Shown here: positions 13,543 to 40,634 of the stretch, in pieces
Layout: the number at the start of each line of letters is the position of its first letter
How positions within the stretch are numbered: position 1 is the first letter of the stretch
Assembly (NCBI GenBank): GCA_963752595.1
Contig: CAVVYZ010000005.1
Span: forward strand, 1-64,000
DNA: 64,000 nucleotides
Reading direction: 5' to 3'
From: an uncultured delta proteobacterium
GTDB lineage: Bacteria; Desulfobacterota; Desulfomonilia; UBA1062
Made by a program: the position numbers and the translations under genes
Notes under the pieces: model-generated
Told to the model about the DNA's origin: nothing
Seen by the model: only the letters and a program-made list of their open reading frames with translations
Databases searched by the model: none

Positions 13543-15282
13543 TCAGCGTGATGCAGCCTGCGGAATGAGCGCCTTCTGCGGGATCGTTCGCGGCTTGTCC
13601 TGGGCGCATGCGAGTTTTTCCAGTTCGAGTGCCCCGGCATTCTTCTCGTAGAATGTGCTGGGCTCATACGTCCACCCGCTCTGGAGCCTTTTCTGCTCTC
13701 TGCCGATGGCGTAATATCCGAAGATTCCCATCAGCGGGGCAATGATCCGGGTTTTCCAACCGAACTCTGCATAAATGTCGCTTAATATCGCTCCGATCTT
13801 CGCATGCATCCTTTTATCGCCCCGGTACCACCTCTTCATCGCCCAGAGAGCTGCGGCATAGGTTGTCTTGAGAGAATTCACTTCCCTCTGGAAGCGCTTG
13901 CGGATGTTCTTGTCCGGATGATGCTTATACCGTTTCCACCCCGTGATCATGGTGCGGATCATCCTGACAAGACTCGGCCCGTTGGTCTCGAAGTCTCTGC
14001 GGAAGGCGGTGCGGAGGAACTCTGTCTCGAGGCCGTCCCTTATATGCCCATGGCGATAGTTGAACCGGTACTGGCCGTGGCTGTCGGCAGCAGGGACTTC
14101 GTCTTCGCCGAGCAGGGTGCCGTTTTCCCGGTGATACTCGTACAAGGGCGTGCCCGGGATGGGTGTATAGAGCATGAACTGATGGAATACCGTGTCGTGG
14201 CTCACCGCATAATCGATGACCTTCTCGATGTTCTCAGGGGTGTGGTCTTCCAGCCCGATAATGGTCGATCCCAGGACTCGGATGCCGTGGGACTGAAGCT
14301 CCTGCACAAGAGTCCTGGTCTGAACACCGCTGAGCTTCGCGTATGCGCTTTTTTCCCCTTCGAGCCCCATCCAGACCCAGGATATGCCCAGGCGTACCAG
14401 TTGCTCGATGGTGTATGACCGCAATACCCGTGCCGAAGAGAACACGAAGAGAGACCAAGACTTGTCGTTCTCCTTCATGAGATCCAGGAGCCGGAGTGCC
14501 CTGCCGCGCTGGAGGAGGAAATTTTCATCCATGATGAAAAACGAGCTCACTTTGAGGTTCTTCTCGATATCGCACATGACCGTATAGAGGTCGTCGCCCG
14601 TTTCGTAGAAGTTGATGAACTTGCCCTTTCCGCCAAAGAGCGCGGAGGTGGAGCAGAAGTTACACCCCATAGGGCATCCGACCGAGGGGATGAGGATCGC
14701 CGCCGTGTCTCCCTGCTTGTTCGTTGGGGCCACGCCCATGATGCGGGTGCCGTATCCGGACAGCTCGTGCGGGTGCTTCACCGGGGCATTTTCATCCAGG
14801 CCTAAGAATTTCCGGAACCAGCGGATGCCGTCTCCCTTGCAGATATGGTCTGCATCGATCCTGTCTTTCAGACCGGGCATGCTCGCAATATGGCCCCCCA
14901 CGACGATCGTGGCCTTGGGATGATAGGCCCGGATGAGCTCGCACATCTTTTTCACTTTGCCGACGTTCGGCATGATGGCGCTGATACCGACGATGTCATA
15001 CGTATGACCGGTGAGCTCATCGACAAAGCGGTCCTGATCGGGAAAATCGAGCAGGGTGCACGGTGCATCGAGGTTTTCCTTGATCATCATCAACCCGAAC
15101 GACCTGTGAAACATACGGAGAGAGAATGGTCCCTGCTCCCTCGTGACCTGGTTATGGTAGAGCTCCATGGGATTGATCTTCCGGCTTCCATACTCATCAT
15201 CCTGCGCATATGGTCCGAACACGCTCGTCAGCAGGATATTCGCCTTTGATCCGAGGGAATGTACAGGGGATTGTGAGTTCAT
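13543..15282 (-). CDS. Cobalamin-binding radical SAM protein (class B type)
   Basis: B12-binding segment DIVGIS..IVVGGH..GDG, then GCPMGCNFCS (CxxxCxxC), DENF and TPIPGTPLY. Confidence 0.85.
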   Translation of the reverse strand: MNSQSPVHSLGSKANILLTSVFGPYAQDDEYGSRKINPMELYHNQVTREQGPFSLRMFHRSFGLMMIKENLDAPCTLLDFPDQDRFVDELTGHTYDIVGISAIMPNVGKVKKMCELIRAYHPKATIVVGGHIASMPGLKDRIDADHICKGDGIRWFRKFLGLDENAPVKHPHELSGYGTRIMGVAPTNKQGDTAAILIPSVGCPMGCNFCSTSALFGGKGKFINFYETGDDLYTVMCDIEKNLKVSSFFIMDENFLLQRGRALRLLDLMKENDKSWSLFVFSSARVLRSYTIEQLVRLGISWVWMGLEGEKSAYAKLSGVQTRTLVQELQSHGIRVLGSTIIGLEDHTPENIEKVIDYAVSHDTVFHQFMLYTPIPGTPLYEYHRENGTLLGEDEVPAADSHGQYRFNYRHGHIRDGLETEFLRTAFRRDFETNGPSLVRMIRTMITGWKRYKHHPDKNIRKRFQREVNSLKTTYAAALWAMKRWYRGDKRMHAKIGAILSDIYAEFGWKTRIIAPLMGIFGYYAIGREQKRLQSGWTYEPSTFYEKNAGALELEKLACAQDKPRTIPQKALIPQAASR

Positions 15283-15450
15283 CTTGAGCAGTTCTCCTTC
15301 GTGATGTTCTGATGATTTCATTTAAGGTACCATAGAGCAGCCCACATGCTGGAAACAACTTAAATAATTGATTTGATATTAGAATTACACTTTGCTTACA
15401 AATATTTTACATTGGATGCATAACCTGCCGGAAACTCTGCTTCTTGCCTT

Positions 15451-16604: not shown

Positions 16605-17414
16605 ATGGTTGAACGCAATGAATATGTGATGGAAGATCCTGAAGAAGCTGTAAGGCTTGACATCAAGATGGACGCCGAAGCTGTTAGAAAACAGGCTTTG
16701 ATGTGCGGAATATTCCCCGGTGCACGAGTTCTCGATGCCGGATGCGGTTCGGGAAAGGCTTCATCTGTTTTCCATTCCTTGACCCAACCCGGAGGCCAGG
16801 TAATAGGAATTGATTTTTCGCAAGCCAGGATCGATTTCGCAAAAAGCCATTATGAAAATGAAGGCACTCATTTCCATCTGATGGATCTGAGAAGTTCTTT
16901 GGAAGAGATCGGCTCTTTTGATTTCATCTGGATGCGGTTCGTGCTTGAGCATTATCTGAATGGAGCAACGGACATTATAAAAAATGTCGCCTCCTCACTG
17001 AAACCGGATGGCATCATGTGCTTGCTTGACCTTGATTACAACTGCCTGAGTCATTACCCCATGACCGGAGATATGGATAAAACACTGCATAAGCTCGTTG
17101 AGAGGATGATGGAGAAACACAACTTCGATCCATTTGTAGGAAGAAAGATGTATTCTTACATGTATGATCTTGGGTTCAGAGACATTCAGATCCACATGGC
17201 GCCGCATCATCTTATTTACGGTGAGCTTAAGGATGTTGATGACTTCAACTGGATAAAAAAAATTCAAATGGCATCCAGAAAAGCCCATGACCTTTTTGAG
17301 AATTACCCTGGGGGATATGATGCTTTTTTTCATGATTTCAATACCTTTTTCCATGATCCGAGACGTTTTACCTACACACCACTCATAATCTGTACCGGCA
17401 AAAAACCTTTGTAA
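16605..17414 (+). CDS. Class I SAM-dependent methyltransferase
   Basis: VLDAGCGSG, GIDFS, FDFIWMRFVLEH and LKPDG. SD GAGGAG. Confidence 0.9.
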   Translation: MVERNEYVMEDPEEAVRLDIKMDAEAVRKQALMCGIFPGARVLDAGCGSGKASSVFHSLTQPGGQVIGIDFSQARIDFAKSHYENEGTHFHLMDLRSSLEEIGSFDFIWMRFVLEHYLNGATDIIKNVASSLKPDGIMCLLDLDYNCLSHYPMTGDMDKTLHKLVERMMEKHNFDPFVGRKMYSYMYDLGFRDIQIHMAPHHLIYGELKDVDDFNWIKKIQMASRKAHDLFENYPGGYDAFFHDFNTFFHDPRRFTYTPLIICTGKKPL

Positions 17415-17619
17415 GCAGAAGGCGCAGCCTGTGGACTGGGGGTTTGATTATATTTTTTAAAGAATCCCCTGCAACTGGCCGAAAAGGAGCCAGAAGATGA
17501 ATACCAGGCCATCCATCGTTTCATTGTTAATTAGATTATGTTATAATTGTATTACAATATAACTACCATGAAAAAACGTATTTGAATATTAGCTACTTCC
17601 ATCAGGGGGGAATGCTTTA

Positions 17620-18453
17620 ATGACTATGCGCTTAAATTACGCCAACTGGAAAACTGATAATAAATCCATCCTCGAAACGCTTTCTGACAAAAAAGTTTTG
17701 ATGGCATTCTCCGGGGGCAAGGACTGCTCTATCGTGCTGCATTATCTATACCTGGCTGGAAAGGATTTCGGTTTTGAGTTTGAAGCAGTCGGCGCAACGT
17801 ATCCTAATCATGTATATCCCCCTGAAGAAACAAAAAGGCTCAGTGATTACTGGCATTCACGCAATATAGATATTAATTGGATAAGCCCCGGCCAATCAGA
17901 TTCGGTTATGGAAGAAGCCGAGCAAGAAGGGAAAAGCGCGTGCCGTGTCTGCCAGAACAAAAAAAGAACCATGTTGGGCAGTTACTTAAAAAGGTTTGAG
18001 CAAAGTAATAAAGAAATTGTGATTGTTATCAGCTTCACATTATGGGACATAGTTACCTACTCTGTTGAATATATGCTGGGAGGGATATTCAAGCCGGATG
18101 ACAAAACCACAACCTCCGGTGACATGATTACCGATGACAGGATTAAACAGACATCCCATCGTTTTTACCAATTTTTTAAAATACAGGATGGTCTTTCCAT
18201 CTTCAAGCCTTTGATCAAATATAACGACGAGGAAATTCGAAAAGCAGTATCGGAAGCAAATGTTCCATTTTCAGATATTGATTGTAAGTACAAAAATACC
18301 AGAACAAAACGGGTTTTATTTGATTACTACAAACAGATGAACCTGTCTTTTGATTATGACAAGGTCCTCAACTTCTATGAGAAGACCCTTAAACTCCATG
18401 ACTTGTCATTTTATACAGGGTTGGATAAAGAAAATCTCATTAAGATTCTATGA
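17620..18453 (+). CDS. PP-loop (adenine nucleotide alpha hydrolase) ATPase, TtcA-like but non-canonical
   Basis: AFSGGKDC P-loop, one CxxC (CRVC) and IFKPL. Confidence 0.75.
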   Translation: MTMRLNYANWKTDNKSILETLSDKKVLMAFSGGKDCSIVLHYLYLAGKDFGFEFEAVGATYPNHVYPPEETKRLSDYWHSRNIDINWISPGQSDSVMEEAEQEGKSACRVCQNKKRTMLGSYLKRFEQSNKEIVIVISFTLWDIVTYSVEYMLGGIFKPDDKTTTSGDMITDDRIKQTSHRFYQFFKIQDGLSIFKPLIKYNDEEIRKAVSEANVPFSDIDCKYKNTRTKRVLFDYYKQMNLSFDYDKVLNFYEKTLKLHDLSFYTGLDKENLIKIL

Positions 18454-18590
18454 GCGACGTTATTAAAATATTTCAGGTCTTATTCTAAGTGTCTAGGTTA
18501 ATGATATTGTTATTGTATCTTGTTGATTATATCAATGCGCAGATAAGGTTGACCATGTCGGACGTTTTATAATTTCCTAGGAGACGTGAA

Positions 18591-20690
18591 ATGCCACATA
18601 AAAAACCTGCATTTGAATCATTTCTAGATGAACCCAAAAGTACAAAAGATCAATCTTCCGTTCCTGTAATCTCTTTCAGTCGCAATAACCTATCGAAGTA
18701 TTCTTCAGAATCGGTGAGCCAGAAGAAATTCATAAATGTTCTCAATTATATTCATTTTTCAGAAGGACAGCTCTTCCTTCAGGCAAACCCTAAAGGCAGT
18801 AAGCACGACTTTCTGATACGAGTACTCCCTGATCCTTGCCAAGGGGATGAAGTGACCTGCAGGTTCCTTGAAGAGTCTATCGATGAAGTCAAGGATCTTA
18901 CTTTGAAAAATCTAATTATCGATGATGGAAAGTCAATACTCTGCATGCCGATAAACATACTCGCTGCTTCGAATAAGAGTATTACTGCTAAGATGAAAAG
19001 TAAATGCTTCGCCTTCAGTGATAGGCAATCAAAGAGATTTCGTTCTCTTATGGTAAATGTGAAGATTCAGAACGGTAGCATTGAAGCAGAGGGAAGCATT
19101 GATGATTTCAGTTCCTCCGGGTTTCGGATACATATAAAGGATATACCAATCAATGCATTTAATCTGGCAAAGAATTTTACAATAGAACTCTCTAAAAAAG
19201 GTGAAATAATATTTTCAGGAATTTGCTGGTCCGTACGTACAGATACAAAGGTAAATTCTATTGTCCTTACCCCTTACGAAGACCAGAGAAATGTATCCAA
19301 GAAACGAAAGTTGCGCAACCCTCGTTTGAATCTTGTACCAACACCCAAGATATCATTTATTCATCCAGTTACAGGTAGAACAGTTACCTATGAAATTTTC
19401 GATATAACAACAGCCGGATTTTCTGTCTTCGAAGATACCGAGAGCTCTTTATTATTTCCGGGGCTGATCATCCATGATGCAACAATTCAATTTGCGGGGG
19501 GATTTAAGCTAAGATGTACAACCCAGATAGTTTATTATTTAAAACATAAGAAAAAAATCAAGCGCCATGGCTTTGCAATAATCGATATGGACATGAAAAC
19601 TTATAATGAATTGTTCGATATATTGAGCAGCGCACATGATATACATGCAAATTTTACTCGAGAAATCGACATGGAATCTCTTTGGAGATTTTTCTTTGAA
19701 TCAGGGTTTATATATCCTAAAAAATACTTATCACTTTGTAAATATAAAGATTATTTTAAAAAAACATACGAAAAATTATATCGCAATAGTCCAGATGTAT
19801 TTGGCAGCTTTACTTATCAGAAAAATGGAATGATGTATGGCCATGTATCCATAATTAAAGCATATCATCGCACATGGATGATTCATCACTTAGCAGCAAA
19901 ATCAATGGGAAGAAAACGTACGGGGTTGTATATACTCAATCATGTACTTAATTATTTTGATGGTCTCTATCGCATGCCTTCCGTTAACATGGATTTTATG
20001 ATCTTCTATTTTAGACCTGATAATAAATTTCCAGATTATTTCTTTGGTGGTTTTTGCAGGGCACTTAAGAATCCTAAGGCATGTTCGATGGATCAATTCG
20101 CTTATCTTACATGTGCAATCCAACATAATGATACACTTCCGAATGGATGGGAGTTTTGTGAAAGTAATGAAAGCGATGTCGATGAATTTGAGCAGTGGTA
20201 TGACGACTTTTCTGGTGGACTCATGATTAAGTCCTTTTGCCTTAAAAGTTCGGATGCTGGTGAACCACTGGAAGATATGTATTCAAGAGTAAATCTTAAA
20301 AGGAAGTATTACCTCTCAAAGCTGACCCATAAGAGAAAGGTCAAGGCATATTTCCTGGTTGACCTATCTGATCTTGGAATGAATCTTTCAGATCTCTTAA
20401 ACAGCATAAAAATATTTGTAGTCGACAAGACATATTTATCTTGGGACACTATCAGGAAGGCAATAAATCTCGTGGGAAATGAATGCAATGAGGAGAAAAT
20501 GACTGTAATGGTGTATCCGGTCTCTTTTGCAAACGACTCAAAGATTGAATACGAGAAAAAATACAACCTTTGGGTACTCAATTCGCAATATGGGGATGAT
20601 TATTGTGAGCATCTTAAAAATAAAGCTAAGTTCAGTACTGGTAAATATATTCTTGGTTATCTGAAATCGAAAGTGACCGGAAGATCCTAA
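18591..20690 (+). CDS. Tandem PilZ-domain protein with a large C-terminal putative enzyme (GNAT-like?) domain
   Basis: PilZ-1 motifs RQSKR and DFSSSG; degenerate PilZ-2 motifs RNPR and DITTAG; about 350-aa C-terminal region (FFESGFIYPKKY, GHVSII..WMIHH, YFRPDNKFP). Confidence 0.65.
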   Translation: MPHKKPAFESFLDEPKSTKDQSSVPVISFSRNNLSKYSSESVSQKKFINVLNYIHFSEGQLFLQANPKGSKHDFLIRVLPDPCQGDEVTCRFLEESIDEVKDLTLKNLIIDDGKSILCMPINILAASNKSITAKMKSKCFAFSDRQSKRFRSLMVNVKIQNGSIEAEGSIDDFSSSGFRIHIKDIPINAFNLAKNFTIELSKKGEIIFSGICWSVRTDTKVNSIVLTPYEDQRNVSKKRKLRNPRLNLVPTPKISFIHPVTGRTVTYEIFDITTAGFSVFEDTESSLLFPGLIIHDATIQFAGGFKLRCTTQIVYYLKHKKKIKRHGFAIIDMDMKTYNELFDILSSAHDIHANFTREIDMESLWRFFFESGFIYPKKYLSLCKYKDYFKKTYEKLYRNSPDVFGSFTYQKNGMMYGHVSIIKAYHRTWMIHHLAAKSMGRKRTGLYILNHVLNYFDGLYRMPSVNMDFMIFYFRPDNKFPDYFFGGFCRALKNPKACSMDQFAYLTCAIQHNDTLPNGWEFCESNESDVDEFEQWYDDFSGGLMIKSFCLKSSDAGEPLEDMYSRVNLKRKYYLSKLTHKRKVKAYFLVDLSDLGMNLSDLLNSIKIFVVDKTYLSWDTIRKAINLVGNECNEEKMTVMVYPVSFANDSKIEYEKKYNLWVLNSQYGDDYCEHLKNKAKFSTGKYILGYLKSKVTGRS

Positions 20691-20838
20691 TATTATAGCA
20701 CTTCACATATAATTTACTGCGTAACAATTTTTTATCAACTTCCCGATATAATACAGGAGAGTTGTAACACTATGTAGAAATGCTCCTGTGCATTTAATGG
20801 GAAAGTTAAATGGTTAATGTTAACAGTATATTAAGATA

Positions 20839-23826
20839 ATGACAAAGAATGATAAACATTATGATAGGCTTTATCATGGTAGGCTCCTTAGGACCTACCT
20901 AGAATATATTAAAAAAAAATACCCCACCCTTGATATAGATGCACTTCTTGATTTTGCTGGGCTCTCTAAATTCGAAATTAATGATGATGGTTTCTGGTAT
21001 ACCCAAGAGCAAGCCGATCGGTTTCACGAAATACTGAATAACCTAACAGGTAATGAAAACATTGCAAGAGAGGTTGGACGTTACGGTGCATCCTCAGAAT
21101 CCCTGAGCGTTATAAAACAATATGTAATATCATTAATGGATCCATCAATGGCATATGAACTCCTCGGGAGAATAGGGTCGAAACTCACGAGGGGAACGAA
21201 GATTGAAATCAAAAGATTATCTAAAAATTCAGTGGAAGCAATATATACCTTAAATCCAGGGGTAAACGAAAAACCCTATCAATGCAAGAATCGATACGGA
21301 CTCATGGAAACCGTAGCAACGTTTTTTACTGGTGAGTTTGCTAATGTAGATCATAAAGAGTGTATCCATGAGGGATATAATTTCTGCAGATATATCATTT
21401 CTTGGGATAAAACATTATTATCCAGGTTAAGACGGTTAAGAAGTATTCTTATGCTTGTTGGAGTTATCGCAAGTATATTCTTTCTGTTTCTTCTTCCTCC
21501 TACCAATTTTTTAATGTGGCTCCTTTCATATTCAGCGGGTATTCTCGCCTTTTCATTATATGACAGTAAATTGGAGGTAAATAGTTTAAAAAATCAAATT
21601 CAATCACAAGGTCAGGCAGCAGAACAATTGATTGCTGAGTCTGACAAAAGATACAGGGATGCCGACCTGGTCCAAGAGATCGGACGAATTATCTCAACTG
21701 TATTGGATATTGACGATCTTCTCTTAACAATAATGAAAACGATTGAGAAGTACTTCGATTATGATAGAGGAATGGTACTTCTTTCCGATAGCAATAAAAA
21801 GCATCTCGTGTATCAAGTGGGATATGGATATTCATCTGAACAGGAAGAATTCTTCCGACATTCTGCTCTTCATCTAGACAAGCCCAAAGCAAAAGGACCA
21901 TTTGTTTTGGCTTTTAAGGAACAAAAGCCTTATTTAGTTAATAATATAAAAGAAATAGTGAATGAATTATCTGAAAGAAGCAGGAGTCTTGTTGAGATAG
22001 CAGAAACGCATTCTTTCATTTGTGTCCCCATAGTATATGAGAACGAGTCATTGGGTGTGCTCTCGTTAGATAACAAAAGATCAACAGGTCCCCCAAAGCA
22101 GAGTGACCTTAATCTCCTCATGGGCATAGCTCCACAAATAGCTATCAGTATCATGAATGCCCGCTCGTTTGAGCGGCTCCAGGCAAGCGAGGAAAAGTAC
22201 CGGGACCTTGTGGAGAGTGCGAACAGTATCATCATGCGCCTGGACACGAAAGGGAAGATTACTTACATCAACAAGTTCGGCCAGGGATTCTATGGATATA
22301 AAGAGAGCGAGATAATCGGGAGGGAAGTGCTTGGTTTTCTCATGCTCGATGTAGATGAAAGTGGGAATGATCTATCAAGAAGCTTCACCTACTTTCTCAA
22401 CCATCCTGATTTTTTCCGGTACTCTACCAATGTGAATATCCTCAGAAATGGAGAGCCTGCGTGGATTTCCTGGAGCAACAAGGCCATTTATGACAAGGAC
22501 GAAGTCCTTGTGGAAATTCTCTGTGTCGGAAACGATATCAGTGCGAGGAAAAAGGCTGAAGATGAAAAGCAGAAGCTGGAGATGCAACTCCAGCGGTCTC
22601 AGAAGATGGAGGCAATCGGGCAGCTTGCCGGCGGTGTCGCTCATGATCTGAACAATATTTTGAGCGGAATTGTAAGCTATCCGGAGATCCTCATGATGGA
22701 GCTCCCTAAAGACAGCCCCCTGACACAATCGCTTGAGATAATTAAAAAATCTGGCGAAAAAGCTGCAGCCATTGTTCAGGATCTGCTTACACTTGCGAGA
22801 AGAGGGGTGAATGCGACCAATGTGGTAAACATTAATAAGGTCGTGAGCGACTTTTTGAGCAGCCCTGAATACAATAAGATTATGCAATACAATCCGAATA
22901 TCCATATAGAGGTTAACCTGGAGTCCCATCTCATGAATGTTCTGGGATCTGAGCTTCATCTTTCGAAGACTGTCATGAATCTCATATCCAATGCTGCTGA
23001 AGCAATGCCCGATGGTGGAGTACTGGCCATAACCACTGAAAATCGTTATATAGATATCCCAACTCAGGGTTATGACCTGATCGAGGAAGGCGAATATGTT
23101 ATATTGCGTGTCAAGGATACGGGCATCGGAATATCCCAGGAAGACCTCAAGAGGGTATTCGAGCCATTCTATTCCAAAAAGGCTATGGGCAGGAGCGGCA
23201 CCGGCCTGGGAATGGCGATCATCTGGTCCACGGTAAAAGATCATAACGGCTTCATCGATGTGAAAAGTACTGTCGGAGAAGGTACCTGCTTAGAGCTTTA
23301 TCTCCCGATTACCCGTCAGGAAGCGAAGACTCAGGAACCCAAGCAATCTATCGAAGCTTTCAGGGGTACGGAGAAGGTCCTGGTGGTTGATGATGTATTC
23401 GAGCAGCGGGAAATTGCGAGAAGACTACTTGAAAATCTTGGATATACAGTTGGGGTATCATCCAGCGGGAAAGAAGCTGTCGAATACCTGAAAAACAACA
23501 GTGCTGATCTTATCATGCTGGATATGATCATGGAGCCCGACATGGACGGCCTGGAAACCTATAAGGAGATCCTCAAGATACACCCAGGGCAGAAGGCGAT
23601 TATTGTCAGCGGCTTTTCCGAAACCGATCGGGTAAAGGGTGCCCTAAGTCTGGGCGCAGGATCATATGTCAAAAAGCCCTATCTCCTCCAAGATATCGCA
23701 AAAGCTGTGCGAAACGAGCTTGATAAAAAAGATAAAAAGTTCAACCCTGCGATCTTTTTTCCCTCTCAAGACTCCAGAACTCTCAGAAAGAACAAAAGAA
23801 TGCTTAGGTTGAAACGCTTTCCTTGA
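20839..23826 (+). CDS. Hybrid sensor histidine kinase: V4R/HNOB-like - 2TM - GAF - PAS - HisKA - HATPase - REC
   Basis: N-terminal Cys motif QCKNRYG..HKECIHEGYNFCRY; GAF (SFICVPIVYE); PAS; AGGVAHDLNN; GTGLG; receiver VLVVDD..LDM..KP. Confidence 0.9.
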   Translation: MTKNDKHYDRLYHGRLLRTYLEYIKKKYPTLDIDALLDFAGLSKFEINDDGFWYTQEQADRFHEILNNLTGNENIAREVGRYGASSESLSVIKQYVISLMDPSMAYELLGRIGSKLTRGTKIEIKRLSKNSVEAIYTLNPGVNEKPYQCKNRYGLMETVATFFTGEFANVDHKECIHEGYNFCRYIISWDKTLLSRLRRLRSILMLVGVIASIFFLFLLPPTNFLMWLLSYSAGILAFSLYDSKLEVNSLKNQIQSQGQAAEQLIAESDKRYRDADLVQEIGRIISTVLDIDDLLLTIMKTIEKYFDYDRGMVLLSDSNKKHLVYQVGYGYSSEQEEFFRHSALHLDKPKAKGPFVLAFKEQKPYLVNNIKEIVNELSERSRSLVEIAETHSFICVPIVYENESLGVLSLDNKRSTGPPKQSDLNLLMGIAPQIAISIMNARSFERLQASEEKYRDLVESANSIIMRLDTKGKITYINKFGQGFYGYKESEIIGREVLGFLMLDVDESGNDLSRSFTYFLNHPDFFRYSTNVNILRNGEPAWISWSNKAIYDKDEVLVEILCVGNDISARKKAEDEKQKLEMQLQRSQKMEAIGQLAGGVAHDLNNILSGIVSYPEILMMELPKDSPLTQSLEIIKKSGEKAAAIVQDLLTLARRGVNATNVVNINKVVSDFLSSPEYNKIMQYNPNIHIEVNLESHLMNVLGSELHLSKTVMNLISNAAEAMPDGGVLAITTENRYIDIPTQGYDLIEEGEYVILRVKDTGIGISQEDLKRVFEPFYSKKAMGRSGTGLGMAIIWSTVKDHNGFIDVKSTVGEGTCLELYLPITRQEAKTQEPKQSIEAFRGTEKVLVVDDVFEQREIARRLLENLGYTVGVSSSGKEAVEYLKNNSADLIMLDMIMEPDMDGLETYKEILKIHPGQKAIIVSGFSETDRVKGALSLGAGSYVKKPYLLQDIAKAVRNELDKKDKKFNPAIFFPSQDSRTLRKNKRMLRLKRFP

Positions 23827-23897: not shown

Positions 23898-25651
23898 CCT
23901 AAATTCCCGTGTTATTGTAACGAGGCAGGCGGCGTGACGCCCAATTTGGTGTAGAGGTCCATCTGCCGTTTCGTTGTTTCGCCGACCTGAGTTGCTGACC
24001 CGGCACTTCAAAGCATTCAATGACATCGAGCTCATCCAGAACTTCCTGCATGGTATGGTCCTTGAACAGGTTGTTTTCCTGCATTTTCCTGGTGATATAG
24101 GATAAAAAGATGAGAGCGATGAACTGCACAAAGAGCTTGCCATCCAGACTTTGTTCCGATGAGACGGCCAGCCGGCGCAGATTCAGCCGTTCTTTCAGAT
24201 TATCGAAGGCCTTTTCCACCAGGTCCTTGTTCCGGTAGATCGCAAGCGCCTCCACCGGGTCCTTTATTTCGTTGCTCAAAAGGGCAAAATACCCGTAATT
24301 GCGTTTTGCCTCCGCCAGGGCCTCTTCTTTGGCAATAACCTTCGTGCCTCGAACCGGCGTGCTTTTCACCTCAAAATATTTGGCATACTGCTTCTCATGA
24401 TCCGGATGGCGCTGGCCGCTTTCCAGTTCTTCCTGCCAATCGGCCAGCCGGCTGTTGAAGGCTTTTTCATCCTCCAGGGCCCGCTCCGGGGAATAATACA
24501 GATGAAGATACATCCGGCGATCCGCTTTGATGGTGTCCCCTTTATAGGGGCGATCCTGGACATAGTCCCAGGTGATCGGCAGGGAGTAGGTATAGAGTTG
24601 GTAGGCCTGACTGTAATGGGTCCAGCTGCGCATCTTGTCCCGAACGGTGTCCAAATGTGTCTTCACGAGTTTCAGGGACAGCTTGGCGGCAATCAGGAAC
24701 TTCATATGATGCCTGTACATGTCGTTGATGTTGGCCGCACTGAAGAAGCCCCGGTCCAGGACCACCTTGATCTTCTCATAGCCCAGCGTGTTCATGTCGG
24801 CCAGCAGTTTCCTCAGCGTTTTCACATCGGGAATGTTTCCTGCCAGCTTCCGGTAATAAAACGGCAGGCGGGATTGTTGCCCGAAGAGCAGGGTCAGATT
24901 GATCTGTGCCAGATGCTCATGATCTTTGTTTTTGCCGTAGCGGACCTGCCTGAGGCATTTCGAATAACTGGAGATGGACGTGCTGTCATAGGCCAGGTAT
25001 TCCCTCTCCACCCGGCGTTTCCCCTGAAGCCGGAAAAATCGCTGCCTGGCTTCCTCGGTGATGGAGGCAAAGAGTTCGCTGCTTCTCTGGGAGGAGATGA
25101 CCTCACCGTGGGGATGCCGATGGAGTGCTGCCCAGCGGGGAAAACGGCTCAGGGGGTTCCTATCCTCCAGGATCAGGTAATAGGCAATGGACAGGATCTG
25201 CCGGTAACTGTCGGGAAAGCATGTCTTCAGATCCTCCGTCACTCCGGTATCCTCCCCGATGCGGTCGAAGAGATAGGTGGCCCCATAGAAACTGCGGGCC
25301 GTCCATGTGATCGGCACCGGCCCTCGCTTGGCTTTCTCCCCGACTATCGGCGTGTTTTCTTTTCCGGGTGGGAATGATCTTCTGTGTCTCGGGATCCACC
25401 CGCCCGATGCATTTGCGTTTTGCCCGGGACTGCTGCTTATCCTTATCCCAGTAAGAGATCGACTCGTACGCATAGGTGATCCCGGTCTTTTTATTGGTCT
25501 GATACACGATAGCCGCCATATACAACTCCTCCTCACCTCGTTACAATAATATATATTGTAACGAGGTATAATGCAAGAGAAATCGTATTTGTTTATTCTT
25601 TATTAGAGACTTATCTCCAGTTTCATCGTTATACTTTTTCGGGAACTCAGG
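23898..25651 (-). mobile_element. IS1634-family insertion sequence
   Basis: Terminal inverted repeats CCTAAATTCCCG (23898) and CCTGAGTTCCCG (reverse complement, ending 25651). No target duplication visible. Confidence 0.8.
23912..25525 (-). CDS. IS1634-family DDE transposase (frameshifts near 25370 and 23985)
   Basis: YDSTSISSY, YGKNKD, VLDRGFFS and YRNKDLVEKAFDNLK. The N-terminus (YAYESISYWDKDKQQSR) is in another frame. Confidence 0.85.
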
Positions 25652-26296
25652 ATCTACCGCAAGCCCAATACCAGCAGGCGTCACCCGGGTCATCAGATCT
25701 ATCCCTATCTGCTACGTAACCTGAAAATCGAGAGACCCAACCATGTCTGGGCAGCTGACATCACCTATATTCCGATGAAAAGGGGCTTTGTCTATCTCAT
25801 CGTGGTTATGGACCGGGCATCACGGCGGGTACTATCGTGGAGGCTGTCAAACACCCTGAGCACAGATTTCTGCATGGAGGCGGTTCAGGAAGCCTTAGAT
25901 CTTTATGGCACCCCGGAAATCTTCAATACCGACCAGGGCAGCCAGTTTACCAGCCTGGAGTTTACTGAGCTTTTGAAGGAAAAGGGTATTGCCATCAGCA
26001 TGGACGGGAGAGGATGCCGGCGTGACAATGTGTTCGTAGAGAGGCTCTGGAGAAGCATCAAATATGAGGAGGTCTATCTGCATGCCTATGATAGTGCCAG
26101 TGAAGCCAGGAGCGGATTAGAACGCTATCTGACGTTTTACAATAATCGCAGGCCACACTCGACGCTTGACAGATCAACCCCGGATGAAGTTTATTTCGGT
26201 TGTCGGGAGGAGATGCCCGATGCGGCTTAATGGGAATAGTGGCAAGACTCCACTTATAAATCGCCATCTCCTGTCTAAACAACCGGAGCCATCTCT
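25652..26296 (+). mobile_element. 5'-truncated IS3-family element (OrfB integrase core and right end)
   Basis: IYRKPNTS..YPYLLR..PNHVWAADITYIPM, FNTDQGSQFTS, DNVFVERLWRSIKYE, stop at 26230. Right end ...CTGTCTAAACAACCGGAGCCATCTCT. Confidence 0.85.
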
Positions 26297-27117
26297 CTGA
26301 ATTGATTGAACCATGAATGGCAGACTTCAACAACCCAGCGTTTTGCATGATATCCCGGGTTATGAGCTTTTTCCGATTTTTCTTTTCTGCGGGATCGGAC
26401 GTGAGGAATGTAGCCGTGAGCACGAATGATCTCCTCTGCAGGTTTCCCCGCATATCCGGCATCGGTACACAAGTTGGGCTGAACCTCTCCTTTTGCTGTA
26501 TCAACTTTAGATCATACGGGCATCCAAGACCGCTTCAAGCTGGCTGACATCGTGACGATTCGCCCCGGTTACGATGATCGACAGCGGGACTCCACGTTCG
26601 TCTACCAACAAATGTCTCTTGCTTCCCTTTTTTCCCCGATCAGTCGGATTGTTTCCAACCGCTTCTCTCCACGGGGCGCCTTCATCATGGCCCCATCAAT
26701 GCTCTGCCATTCCCAGGCTATCCCTCCCATGTCATCATATTCCGCCAGTCCACGCCTCCAGAGTTGCTCGAAAAACCCAGCTGCCAGCCACTCACAAAAA
26801 TACCGATGAATCGCACTTCCGCTGCCGAACACCTCTTTGGGCAAAGCCTTCCATTGTATGCCGGTCCGGAGCACGTATACGATGGCCTCGAATACCTTCC
26901 TCGCGGGCAATGGCGGTCTTCCTGCTCCAGGTCGCCTCTCATAGTTGCGTTTCGGATCCCTCTCCTTGTGAGGTATCAACGGCTCTACTATCTCCCAGAA
27001 TTCGTCAGATACTTCCCATGATTGTACTCTCTTCATTGCTGTCCCTCGTACTGTGTTTGTTCGCAATACGTAGGGTCATCTTATATCCTTTCAACCCCAA
27101 TTAAGGGATTGGTTCTA
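26297..27117 (-). mobile_element. IS5-family element with a disrupted transposase, 3' end cut by the IS3 element
   Basis: From the ATG at 27036: GRPP..VLRTGIQWKALP, SIDG, DAGY and KRWVVE..SWFNQFR, ending abruptly at the IS3 end. Frameshifts or stops inside. Confidence 0.8.
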
Positions 27118-27287
27118 AATACCATTTTCCAGGGGCAAAATGAGGCTCCTAAGCTCCTTAATGGCCCGCTTTAAGCCCCTTCTAACATCATTTCAATCAC
27201 TTACTTTGGTCCGACCCCCGCCCGCGTCCTTAAGGCCTCTCACAGCCCTTAGCCGCCTCCTCGTTGAGTGTTGGTTCTCCTCTCGCT

Positions 27288-27342
27288 TCCTTAATCAGGA
27301 CCCGTCCCGGATTTCTCCTTAATCGTGACCCGTCTCTAATTT
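27288..27342. repeat. Two tandem 27-nt imperfect repeats (REP-like), period 28
   Basis: TCCTTAATCAGGACCCGTCCCGGATTT (27288) and TCCTTAATCGTGACCCGTCTCTAATTT (27316). Confidence 0.7.
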
Positions 27343-27608
27343 CCATCTATATCTCTATTAATTATAAGCCATTGCTAACATGAACGCTCCGAAGACTGCT
27401 CCCAGATGAACCATAATCAATATGTATCCTGTTCTTTTCAATTTTCTTCTATTATTACTGGCAACAAGGATAACTCCATACATTGGGTACTGAATGAGTA
27501 ATACCAAATAATGTAAAACCGATTTCAACTCTGCATCTTGTGAAATAGCACGTATGTCAATGGGCGTATAAAAGTTTACCAATTCTGGGCGTGAGAAGTT
27601 TACCACCC

Positions 27609-28385
27609 TTATGCAATACTGCCATGAGAATCGACCCCATCCTTTGAGATTTTCCCCCGTAAACGGAAACTGTTGCCTCTGATGTTGATCACGACGCTGT
27701 GATGCAGAAGCCGATCAAGGATCGCCGTGACGATGATCTGGTCATGGAAGAGCTCAGTCCAGTCGGTGAACGCCTTGTTGGAGGTCAGGATGGTGCTGGC
27801 CTTCTCGTAGCGGTTGGCAACGAAGCGGTAAAAGAGATTGCACTCCTGCCGGTCGATGGGCGTGTAGCCCACCTCGTCAACGACCACGAGAGCGGATTTG
27901 TAATAGCTTCTCCCCCTGCCGGAACGGCCCGTCTCGTGATCTTTCTTGAGCTTCCCGATGAGGTCCTCCATGGTGGTGAAGTACACGCTCAGGCCCGACT
28001 GGCAGGCTTTCACCGCCAAAGCCACGGCCAGGTGGGTCTTTCCCACCCCCGGAGGGCCTAAGAAGATCACGTTGCCCTTCTGCCGGATGAAGGTCAGGTC
28101 GAACAGCGACATCACTTTCTGCCGGTCGAGCCCAGGCTGGAAGGTGAAGTCGAACTCGTCGATGGACTTGATGAAGGGCAGGCCCGAGATCTTGAGCGTG
28201 GTCTCCACTCTTCGCTGCTCCTTCTGGGCCACTTCCTCTTCGAGGAGGTCGTCAAGGAAGGAGAGATAGCTCTTGCTCTGCTCCTCGGCAGCATGGATGG
28301 TGCCGTCGAGGACCTCCCGGATCCTCGGGAGCCTTAAGCGTGCGAGGTTGGCTTCGATCCGTTCGTACACCAGGATATCGCTCAT
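27609..28385 (-). CDS. istB: IS21 helper ATPase IstB
   Basis: GPPGVGKTHLA, VVDEVGY and AILDRLLHH. 4-nt overlap with istA. Confidence 0.95.
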   Translation of the reverse strand: MSDILVYERIEANLARLRLPRIREVLDGTIHAAEEQSKSYLSFLDDLLEEEVAQKEQRRVETTLKISGLPFIKSIDEFDFTFQPGLDRQKVMSLFDLTFIRQKGNVIFLGPPGVGKTHLAVALAVKACQSGLSVYFTTMEDLIGKLKKDHETGRSGRGRSYYKSALVVVDEVGYTPIDRQECNLFYRFVANRYEKASTILTSNKAFTDWTELFHDQIIVTAILDRLLHHSVVINIRGNSFRLRGKISKDGVDSHGSIA

Positions 28386-29656
28386 AGCGAAGCCCCCGCC
28401 GCATGGTCATAAACCGAGAGCGGCCTGATCTGCACGTCCATGTCGTATAAAGGCTTTACCGGAGAGATGGTGAGCTTCGCCCGTCCCTTTGCCGGTCTGG
28501 CGTGATGATACTTCCGTGCATTCATCGCCCGGTCCTTGCGCAGAGCCTCGTAGAATCGCCTGTCCTGCACCAGGTGGCCAGAGCCTTCAGGGATTACATA
28601 GGCAACGATAAGCCGGTCGTCGGCAAACACCCGCATGACCTTGTCCTTCACGCGAAGCACAACCCCTTTGCCCACCAGGGTATGGGGAACAACGTAGCTG
28701 TTGCCCTCGAAGCGCACCGTGCAGTCCTTGTGCACCTTCCGGTACACCCGGTACGAGGTATCGAACTCCCTGAGAGGCACGGGCTTCAGGTATGGCAGCT
28801 CGCGCTCGTACCGAACTCGCACCACCTCATGGGTCGTGCCGTGCACTCGCTCATCCTTGATCTTCAGCCATTGGGCCAGATCCCGGTTGGCAGTCTCAAT
28901 GCAGGTGAACCCGTACCCTCTCCAGAACCCTTCCCGGATGTACGAATACGGCCTCTCCACCTTGCCCTTCACCCAGGCGGCATAGGCTGGCGCCACCCTC
29001 GGCTTGAATCCATAGTGGACGGCAAAGCCCTGGAGCGTGGCGTTGAACCTGGCCTTGCCACCGACCTTGCCGATGTAGACGTTCCTCATCCGGTCGTAGA
29101 GAATCTCCCCGGGCACGCCCCCGAAGGAATCAAAGGCTCGGATGTGGCAATCCAGGAAGGTGGGCAGGTCACAACGCTCGATGAGCTCCCCGTAGAGCTT
29201 CCTCGAATATCCCAGGATCATGGAGAACAGGTAGTACTTCAGAACCGTGCCGTCTTCACGCACCACCTGGAACTCACCGAAGTCTACCTGCGCCTGGCAG
29301 CCCGGCTCACTCTCAAACCGCATATAAGCAATGCGCTGCGTTTCCACCTTGAGCTCATGAACCTTGCGCTTCACAGGATCGTAGCTCCCGGCATACCCCA
29401 GCGGCCTGAGATGGTCGTATATCCAGGTCGCTTTGTACTCGGGGTCTTCGCTCAGCCATGCCCGGATGTTGCCCTCATAGGGGTCGAGCTTGCTTTCCCT
29501 CACCACTGGCCGCCGTCCCCGCTCGCATGTTTCGGGGGCATCGAGGTACTTATGCACCGTCGGCCGGGAGATCCCCAACCTCTTCGCTATCTGCCTCTCT
29601 GACAACCCCTGCCTCTTGAGCGCCACGATGTCCATCACATCTCCCAGTCTCTTCAC
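28382..29656 (-). CDS. istA: IS21 transposase IstA
   Basis: HTH (SERQIAKRLGISRPTV), RFESEPG.QAQVDFG, YDRM and KGKVER. Confidence 0.95.
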   Translation of the reverse strand: MKRLGDVMDIVALKRQGLSERQIAKRLGISRPTVHKYLDAPETCERGRRPVVRESKLDPYEGNIRAWLSEDPEYKATWIYDHLRPLGYAGSYDPVKRKVHELKVETQRIAYMRFESEPGCQAQVDFGEFQVVREDGTVLKYYLFSMILGYSRKLYGELIERCDLPTFLDCHIRAFDSFGGVPGEILYDRMRNVYIGKVGGKARFNATLQGFAVHYGFKPRVAPAYAAWVKGKVERPYSYIREGFWRGYGFTCIETANRDLAQWLKIKDERVHGTTHEVVRVRYERELPYLKPVPLREFDTSYRVYRKVHKDCTVRFEGNSYVVPHTLVGKGVVLRVKDKVMRVFADDRLIVAYVIPEGSGHLVQDRRFYEALRKDRAMNARKYHHARPAKGRAKLTISPVKPLYDMDVQIRPLSVYDHAAGASL

Positions 29657-30030
29657 CCACGCCCCCTCATGCTTCCGCTTCTGCACTCCATTAAGTGCTC
29701 CTCGGAAACCACGTCGGGGCGGCTGACTACTTCGAGGGGGACACATTCCCCCTCGACCCCTTTGAAAACCGTTCTACACTCCTGAAAATGAAAACCCTAA
29801 AGACTCTCCGGGTGGTAAACTTTCACGTGCCCATTTTTGGTAAGATTTATCACGCCCAAGAACAACGTATTAGAACCCAGAATGGGAACAATACTTTCAT
29901 GGGAACATATGTCCCATCACCTCCTGCTGATAAAAAGGACTCCAATTGCAATGGCAACTGGAGTTACAATGATTGACGATATGATTATTATCCAATTTTT
30001 CATCCTTATTCCTTCCCTTATATTTTACAA

Positions 30031-39179: not shown

Positions 39180-40301
39180 TTAGATTAACCGGCATTCCGG
39201 CTGATGCATGCCCGGCTTGGTCATCACCACCTGCCACAGCTGTATATCGCGGGAGCGGAATGCTCCGGCCGAGCTGAGCAGATAGAATCGCCACATTCTG
39301 CGGAAGCGCTCGCCATACCGGTCTTTCAAACCGTTCCAGCTTTTTTCGAAATTTTCATGCCAGGCCATCAGGGTCTTGTCATAATCCGGCCCGAAATTAT
39401 GCCAGTCTTCCATGACAAACAACCCTTCCATTGCCTCGCTGAGCTGAGCGATGGAAGGGATCTGGCCGTTCGGGAAGATATATTTGGCGTACCACGGGTT
39501 TGTGATTTTCATGCTCACATTCCCGCCGATGGTATGGAAAAACCCTATGCCGTCGGCTTTCAATGTACGGTCTACCAGTCCCATGTAATCCCGGTAGTTT
39601 TTATACCCCACATGTTCGAGGATCCCGATTGAGACTACCCTGTCATACTTCCCCTCGACGTCCCGGTAATCCTGCAGCCTGATATCGACCGGGAAGCCTT
39701 GGCAGAGCTCTTTTCCCAGCTTCACCTGCTCTTTGGAAACCGTTACGCCTGTTACCGACGCCCCGTAGCGCTCTGCGGCATACCTGGCAAACGCACCCCA
39801 TCCGCAGCCGAGGTCCAGCACCTTCATCCCGGGCTCTATTTCGACTTTCCGGCACACCAGATCCATCTTTGCAACCTGTGCATCATCAAGGTTATCCGAT
39901 GCCCTCCAGTAGCCGCAGGTATACACCATCCGGGAGTCGAGCATTAGTCGATAGAGATCATTCCCGATGTCATAGTGCCTCTTTCCCACTTCATAGGCCC
40001 TGCCGGTGCTCTGGAGATTAAAGATCCTTGCCTTGAAATTTTCCCAGACAAATCTGAAATCCCCTTTCACCGTTCTTTCAATCCCGGCACGCAGGGCACG
40101 GTCAAAGAACTGATCGATGGACGGGCAATCCCACCACCCGTCCATATATGACTCACCCAGTCCAAGCACGCCTTCACGCAGGACCCGCTCATAAAATTCA
40201 TTGCGGTGCACGGTTATATCCCAGGGGTTATCACCATTGACGCGTATGCCCGATGAAGACAGCAGGTCCTGGATGATATGCTCTGCACCTTGCTTCGGCA
40301 T
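39180..40301 (-). CDS. cfa: Cyclopropane-fatty-acyl-phospholipid synthase-like methyltransferase
   Basis: GLGESYMDGWW, HYDIGNDLY, YTCGYW, LDLGCGWG and RMWRFYL. Confidence 0.9.
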   Translation of the reverse strand: MPKQGAEHIIQDLLSSSGIRVNGDNPWDITVHRNEFYERVLREGVLGLGESYMDGWWDCPSIDQFFDRALRAGIERTVKGDFRFVWENFKARIFNLQSTGRAYEVGKRHYDIGNDLYRLMLDSRMVYTCGYWRASDNLDDAQVAKMDLVCRKVEIEPGMKVLDLGCGWGAFARYAAERYGASVTGVTVSKEQVKLGKELCQGFPVDIRLQDYRDVEGKYDRVVSIGILEHVGYKNYRDYMGLVDRTLKADGIGFFHTIGGNVSMKITNPWYAKYIFPNGQIPSIAQLSEAMEGLFVMEDWHNFGPDYDKTLMAWHENFEKSWNGLKDRYGERFRRMWRFYLLSSAGAFRSRDIQLWQVVMTKPGMHQPECRLI

Positions 40302-40634
40302 GTACCCTCCTTTTTGTCCACAGGCCATGCAGTATTTCATGATAGGGCAGGCAGGACGTTTCTCAAGACCGGGCATTCAGGAAGGTTAATTAAACTATCT
40401 TAATATATCAATAAGTTATGAAACATATCCTTGTATATACTTTAACGTTTTGAATTAATTAAAGATATTGCTGTACTTTGCCGAGCTATCCGGTACTCCA
40501 GTAGTTTCATTACATCGGCCGGGCGGCGCTCGATGTTGCCCGGCTTTTTTTCCCAGCGGTTCCCCAGGTCATGGGAAAATGAGTATCATACGGGTCTTGG
40601 GCTATGAATTCTCTGGTATCTCTTTGGATTCGGG

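Follow-up and report, generated by a model that had tools for sequence, protein, structure and literature searches.

A conserved PilZ-GNAT and sensor gene pair with replaceable tailoring enzymes in Desulfobacterota: a candidate lipid-signal cassette

In this study, we analysed a window of 64,000 nucleotides (positions 1 to 64,000, forward strand, of contig CAVVYZ010000005.1, assembly GCA_963752595.1) from an uncultured delta proteobacterium (Desulfobacterota; Desulfomonilia; UBA1062), and describe a four-gene module whose core, a PilZ-GNAT protein gene and the adjoining sensor gene, is conserved across the phylum together with a replaceable slot for tailoring enzymes. The module begins with a class I S-adenosylmethionine (SAM)-dependent methyltransferase (MT; 16605-17414, plus strand, 269 aa; Pfam Methyltransf_31, E 7e-16), followed by an accessory PP-loop (AANH) ATPase resembling TtcA, TtuA and LarE, which is a predicted [4Fe-4S] sulfur insertase (17620-18453, plus strand, 277 aa). 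The core protein joins a YcgR-N-like domain, two PilZ domains and a tandem GNAT, and is predicted to be an acyltransferase gated by cyclic di-GMP (c-di-GMP) (18591-20690, plus strand, 699 aa), while the last gene encodes a hybrid sensor kinase with V4R/AraC-N-like domain, hydrophobic hairpin, GAF, PAS, HisKA, HATPase and REC (20839-23826, plus strand, 995 aa). Domain calls were made with Pfam and NCBIfam; the MT exceeded the Pfam cut-off, and the PP-loop protein and one PilZ domain gave weak matches. The initial annotation had described four co-oriented intact genes in an AT-rich block, and all four open reading frames (ORFs) are indeed uninterrupted on the plus strand, with GC contents of 0.43, 0.39, 0.36 and 0.43 in gene order against 0.524 for the contig, and third-position GC (GC3) values that rank within the lowest 5-15 when the genome's 890 long ORFs are compared (lowest 2%). 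The spacers, given there as 140-205 nt, measure 205, 137 and 148 nt. Promoter and terminator scans stayed at chance level (25 vs 21.1 and 6 vs 5.5, respectively), no sigma-54-like site was found upstream of the four genes, and no common palindrome stood out among 91 upstream regions.

Conservation of the module was surveyed by profile scans of 401 genomes of the phylum, a set that includes non-independent kin and incomplete genomes; an initial genome scan with a single protein gave no match, while the profile scan succeeded. Matches were found in 46 genomes for PilZ-GNAT, 55 for the sensor, 37 for the MT family and 5 for the PP family, and by hand count PilZ-GNAT accompanied the MT in 35 of 37 genomes and the sensor in 38 of 55. 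Related loci were recovered from Desulfomonilia, Syntrophales, Desulfobacteraceae and Smithella records, and searches of plasmids and viral contigs gave no match. The PilZ-GNAT ORF was called in 158 of 159 fetched loci, 53 had sufficient flank, and removal of near-duplicates left 46, of which 41 carry the sensor, 27 the MT (from a six-frame recount that includes genes hidden by overlapping ORFs), 10 an enolase-family gene, none both MT and enolase, 6 the PP gene and 4 a B12 radical SAM gene. Among 95 non-redundant loci having at least 1 kb of downstream flank, the sensor gene comes immediately after PilZ-GNAT in 77, and the two genes often overlap by 4 nt. This arrangement places a putative synthase, the GNAT protein, beside its putative receptor. 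The gene triad is kept even in a distant family with ~950-aa PilZ-GNAT proteins and B12 radical SAM genes. Co-occurrence of the four families elsewhere, as proposed for this module, is thus found far beyond chance. What relatives keep, however, is PilZ-GNAT and the sensor along with a tailoring slot of changeable content; the four-gene set does not hold as a unit, the MT being replaceable and the PP gene accessory (6/46 loci; 5/401 genomes). Since the gene order is kept across families, we rejected the possibility that the cluster is an artefact or arose purely through mobility and chance.

At the same syntenic site in the tailoring slot, the MT is swapped for an enolase-family enzyme plus a WbuX-like PP-loop enzyme in three locus pairs (L067/L065, L074/L137 and L062/L098), and, mapped on the PilZ-GNAT tree, the enolase label must have changed at least 6 times. 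Methyltransferases of the types matched in the PDB, the enolase-superfamily racemases and cycloisomerases, and the PP-loop adenylases act on carboxylates or amides, and an acylated molecule bearing a carboxylate- or amide-type group would fit all three enzyme families. The neighbours, too, favour chemistry on small molecules or lipids over that on tRNA: FadL-type channels are encoded in 7 fetched loci, a gene for a cyclopropane fatty acid synthase (Cfa) lies between PilZ-GNAT and sensor in one locus (L054), B12 radical SAM enzymes recur, and a patatin and an enolase-alpha/beta-hydrolase fusion occur in single or few loci. The fusion, an enolase-family protein joined to an alpha/beta hydrolase, lies directly upstream of the PilZ-GNAT gene (L013:3498-5540 and relatives).

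An AlphaFold (AF2) model of the PilZ-GNAT protein, built on 58 relatives (mean pLDDT 88.9) and compared by Foldseek and VIA-align, predicts a YcgR-N-like domain at residues ~36-144, PilZ domains at 142-230 and 239-352, and a tandem GNAT at 348-670. The PilZ part matches YcgR and the Alg44 PilZ in structure, while the best VIA-align match is the histidine acetyltransferase 9emd (Z 13.2, rmsd 4.4, 258 aligned), followed by N-myristoyltransferases and other tandem GNATs; VipF was matched as well. Within the first PilZ domain, R145 and R149 of the RxxxR motif and D/E172 are invariant (58/58 each), G177 is kept in 39/58, and the second motif reads D/E-x-S/N/T-x-x-G; the second PilZ domain carries the variants K/R-x-x-R242-x-x-R245 and DxTxxG. 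Both domains thus retain motifs of the c-di-GMP-binding type, the second in variant form, in line with the PilZ assignment of the initial annotation. Neither Pfam nor NCBIfam gives a match for the GNAT half, and its profile finds no PDB sequence at E<=10; the profile matches 1700 cluster representatives at E<=0.001, and Atlas searches returned only unnamed clusters and a low-scoring Acetyltransf_1 lead. Several unusual forms of the gene were seen. In two proteins of ~1210 aa (P0276 and P0304), the PilZ-GNAT protein is fused to NERD and Ser/Thr kinase domains, and another cluster (P0322) also has a member named NERD domain-containing. On a short contig, a stand-alone tandem GNAT of 360 aa without PilZ adjoins an MT (L195:655-1737), and the PilZ-GNAT gene or the whole module is tandemly duplicated in L056, L145, L117 and L130. 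Directly upstream of PilZ-GNAT, L012 (8563-9402) and 7 other, Desulfobacteraceae-like loci encode an unnamed protein of 275 aa that matches neither Pfam nor NCBIfam.

The sensor kinase comprises a V4R/AraC-N-like domain (residues 1-192) and a hydrophobic stretch with two peaks, predicted to form a hairpin (~197-245), ahead of the output part with the phosphorelay residues H602 (HisKA) and D895 (REC). The V4R-like N-terminus had been assigned to this kinase itself; a weak V4R match is seen at the level of the family only (33/56 members at E<=0.05, best 1.6e-6), and the window's own member is unmatched. The AraC-N Arabinose_bd domain gives a weak match in 27/56 members. A putative metal-site pattern of C149, H172, C175 and C183 is conserved in 56, 55, 56 and 52 of 56 sensor sequences, respectively, and the sensor profile weakly matches the C-terminal stretch of Shewanella H-NOX (2kii/4u9b, E 0.02). 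Heme binding by H-NOX has as hallmarks the YxSxR motif and the proximal His, both of which are absent from the consensus of the 56 sensor sequences. The predicted hairpin would anchor the protein to the membrane and hold sensor domain and outputs alike in the cytoplasm. A ligand inside the cell or in the membrane is therefore no less plausible than a diffusible autoinducer. The sensor-hairpin-GAF front is constant and the outputs vary between kinase, HD-GYP and adenylate/guanylate cyclase: among 16 relatives scanned, 9 have a kinase, 2 a cyclase, and the others HD-GYP or truncated outputs, with 4 Pfam HD matches among L009, L011, L037 and L052, plus L075. Two loci (L065 and L067) each have two sensors with different outputs. 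This genome also holds a truncated second copy of the sensor domain, a 204-aa open frame without partner genes (G000:C17:21929-22540, minus strand, in L220).

For the PP-loop protein, the top Foldseek match is TtuA (E 3e-9), with NcsA and TilS also similar in fold, and the best sequence match of its profile in the PDB is 8cnz, which we take to be LarE. GGKD and C108, C111 and C222 are invariant in 48/48 sequences (the window protein reads SGGKDC), and the three cysteines (CxxC-C) align with those of the genome's own TtcA-like protein. The protein falls below all NCBIfam cut-offs, scoring 26.3 bits for the TtcA equivalog against a cut-off of 272, and the GHHxDD stretch of TtcA is SFTLWD here. 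Since the genome has two separate TtcA-like genes, which score 221 and 201 against the same cut-off and adjoin miaA-like genes, the PP gene is unlikely to be a housekeeping tRNA enzyme. The CxxC-C motif binds a [4Fe-4S] cluster in LarE (PMC9283937) and in the thioamide synthetase CtaC (PMC6772006). We infer from these residues that the PP protein may be a sulfur insertase for a non-tRNA substrate.

Through PP genes without PilZ-GNAT and distant sensor matches, we reached a second cassette, which combines an acyltransferase of the Pfam family Lip_A_acyltrans with an enzyme of the same enolase family and a homologue of the window's sensor (HH probability 98.7). In this homologue, the His of the metal-site pattern is replaced by Glu, and the hydrophobic hairpin is missing. 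FadL accompanies the second cassette in some cases. Among 17 loci with this second-type sensor, the acyltransferase and the enolase are each present in 13 and the window's PP family in 2, with three of the misses at contig edges; these counts are biased, as the loci were chosen through sensor, enolase or PP matches. That a single sensor family lies beside acyltransferases of two unrelated folds is an argument for acyl transfer as the step that makes the sensed molecule.

Starting from the gene content, co-occurrence, slot and output swaps and motifs observed here, and from the predicted folds and hairpin topology, we give about an even chance to the interpretation that the cassette encodes a GNAT acyltransferase making an acylated lipid-like molecule, accessory enzymes that tailor it and a V4R-like sensor that reads it. 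The initial annotation had cited PhcB as a precedent for methyltransferases as autoinducer synthases; we rejected a PhcB-centred model because the MT is replaceable, and the GNAT acyltransferase, as the constant enzyme, is the likelier synthase. According to the proposed mechanism, c-di-GMP would bind the PilZ pair and gate the GNAT, which would acylate a small amine, with an N-acyl amino acid or amide as the best guess for the product. The MT may tailor this product by forming a methyl ester or N-methyl group, and the PP enzyme by exchanging O for S via its putative [4Fe-4S] cluster; the membrane-anchored sensor would then bind the product and drive the phosphorelay. In versions with an HD-GYP output, the circuit would act back on c-di-GMP, the molecule gating the synthase.

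Several observations weigh against this interpretation. The GNAT fold does not reveal the substrate, and its fold matches include the protein acyltransferases NMT and VipF. Acyl carrier protein (ACP) and acyl-ligase genes, named in the initial annotation as neighbours to look for, are not among the 45 commonest neighbour clusters, nor is any exporter gene, and the first FadL profile found 0/46 in the 46-locus set. No sensor match at E<=1e-10 was found in 8 of the 46 PilZ-GNAT genomes, and the cassette parts lie on separate contigs in some genomes (e.g. G169). MT and enolase are mutually exclusive per locus and not per genome, as 6 genomes have both, plus one with a weak match (G297); in the three of these whose enolase locus was fetched, the enolase sits by a second-type sensor. 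The mirror-tree correlation between GNAT and sensor (rho 0.71) is not above that between GNAT and GAF (0.75), which reflects co-inheritance only and carries no specific signal of co-evolution.

Regulated membrane-lipid remodelling is a possible though somewhat improbable alternative, in which the sensor reads an outside cue (a FadL-imported fatty acid or aromatic, or stress) and controls aminolipid enzymes, and the product is structural rather than a ligand. FadL, patatin, Cfa and the lipid-A-type acyltransferase among the neighbours would suit this role, and ornithine-lipid pathways offer a precedent, with N- and then O-acylation plus the N-methyltransferase OlsG (PMC12971839). A sigma-54 activator adjoins several second-type cassettes, with a sigma-54-like site in 3/12, but such sites are rare in the upstream regions of PilZ-GNAT (3/90) and MT (0/44), the sensor of the GNAT cassette is usually co-oriented with the enzyme gene and often overlaps it, and many of the outputs are second-messenger enzymes instead of transcription routes.

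It is also conceivable, albeit unlikely, that the cassette modifies proteins, with the GNAT acylating and the MT methylating a protein, possibly the sensor or the motility machinery. Enolase-superfamily and PP-loop enzymes act on small carboxylates or amides, and protein modification leaves their exchange for the MT unexplained, as it does the second cassette with its lipid acyltransferase. In its favour are the N-myristoyltransferases among the fold matches, the NERD-Ser/Thr-kinase fusions (P0276 and P0304), and PixB, for which the same may hold: this protein with two PilZ domains and a GNAT controls Frz-dependent motility, and no substrate is named for it (PMC8316039). The view that the PP enzyme, and perhaps the MT, modify tRNA or nucleotides as passengers of a two-gene PilZ-GNAT/sensor unit is very unlikely: while the closest PP folds are the tRNA thiolases TtuA and NcsA, and TilS, and 3 of the 5 PP-positive genomes lack a PilZ-GNAT match, those three have the PP gene beside the cassette's enolase, 15/15 PP rows in fetched loci adjoin a cassette component (near-duplicates included and the window counted twice), and separate housekeeping TtcA-like genes exist.

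Returning to an acyl-derived signal read by the adjoining sensor, a more specific version can be formulated, which we regard as rather improbable at present: undescribed modular lipid-signal circuits in Desulfobacterota would join a single family of zinc-site V4R-like receptors to one of two unrelated acyltransferases, use a c-di-GMP-gated synthase and speak dialects set by interchangeable tailoring enzymes, and in this genome the [4Fe-4S] sulfur insertase and the MT would make a thio-acyl autoinducer (thioamide or thiocarboxylate-derived). If true, such an autoinducer would be a signal chemistry suited to sulfidic anaerobes. To our knowledge, cell-to-cell and lipid signalling are poorly charted in syntrophs and sulfate reducers, and the cassette, present in 46 of the 401 genomes sampled from the phylum, would offer a defined set of synthase, tailoring enzymes and receptor. 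It would further hint at the class of substrate used by PixB-like PilZ-GNAT proteins and at the ligand of an unnamed sensor family.

The history of the module in this genome seems to involve relocation or re-acquisition. At the site where relatives carry MT, PilZ-GNAT and sensor, between a release-factor-like gene and a membrane-protein gene, this genome has an intact but empty site (L243; G000:C22, ~141380-141640). Identity of the module to its nearest relative (L081) is 55-68%, within the range of flanking genes (44-82%), and the module, PP gene included, was probably moved or re-acquired from a relative to the AT-rich block by the pile of insertion sequences (IS). This pile (23899-29746, NCBIfam calls), which we treat as context outside the mechanism, consists of IS1634, an IS3 fragment, an IS5 fragment and IS21 istAB, and its IS3 and IS21 parts have further copies elsewhere in the genome. 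The block had been described as bordered by IS elements, which is correct for the right side, while the left flank holds ordinary genes. The C-terminal tail of the kinase, ~30 aa (23731-23826), exceeds the alignment of its closest relative and may have arisen through the neighbouring IS insertion. A B12-binding radical SAM gene (13543-15321, minus strand), of a type that recurs in related cassettes, lies two genes upstream of the module, and 15 kb downstream an ORF (39180-40376, minus strand) has a translation that reads as a cyclopropane fatty acid synthase-type methyltransferase.

Judged from sequence, the cassette matches no curated family beyond generic domains, and a literature search, with most subscription papers outside its scope, found no paper on it; individual parts do resemble known systems. 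V4R effector domains are known from XylR, DmpR and MopR, and the sensor appears to resemble these and Shewanella H-NOX in the C-terminal Cys/His(Glu)/Cys/Cys pattern, but here it is fused to a hairpin, GAF and variable output rather than to a sigma-54 activator. The PP protein shares the PP-loop and CxxC-C motif with TtcA/TtuA, LarE and CtaC; it differs from TtcA in lying far under the cut-off and in the replaced GHHxDD stretch, while LarE (PMC9283937) and CtaC (PMC6772006) thiolate small-molecule carboxylates and amides. The PilZ-fused N-acyl amino acid synthases Nas354 and Nas343, described with FeeM and NasP in a study proposing N-acyl amino acids as messengers (PMC4897644), likewise have a second-messenger-binding domain fused to an acyltransferase, which in the window protein is predicted to be of GNAT-type fold. 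The available part of that paper mentions no cognate sensor for them, and the window protein differs from FeeM/NAS and LuxI in giving no family-profile or solved-structure sequence match; FeeM and LuxI are also absent among the fold matches listed, which speaks against neither. PixB (MXAN_2604) of Myxococcus xanthus, which has two PilZ domains and a C-terminal GNAT and binds c-di-GMP in vitro (PMC8316039), is similar in combining two PilZ domains with a GNAT. The window protein has in addition a YcgR-N-like domain, its GNAT is a tandem one, and its gene comes in fixed association with those of a sensor and tailoring enzymes. Finally, PhcB/PhcS quorum sensing of Ralstonia also links a methyltransferase and a histidine kinase to a fatty-acid-derived signal; in the cassette, the acyltransferase is the constant enzyme and the methyltransferase the replaceable one.

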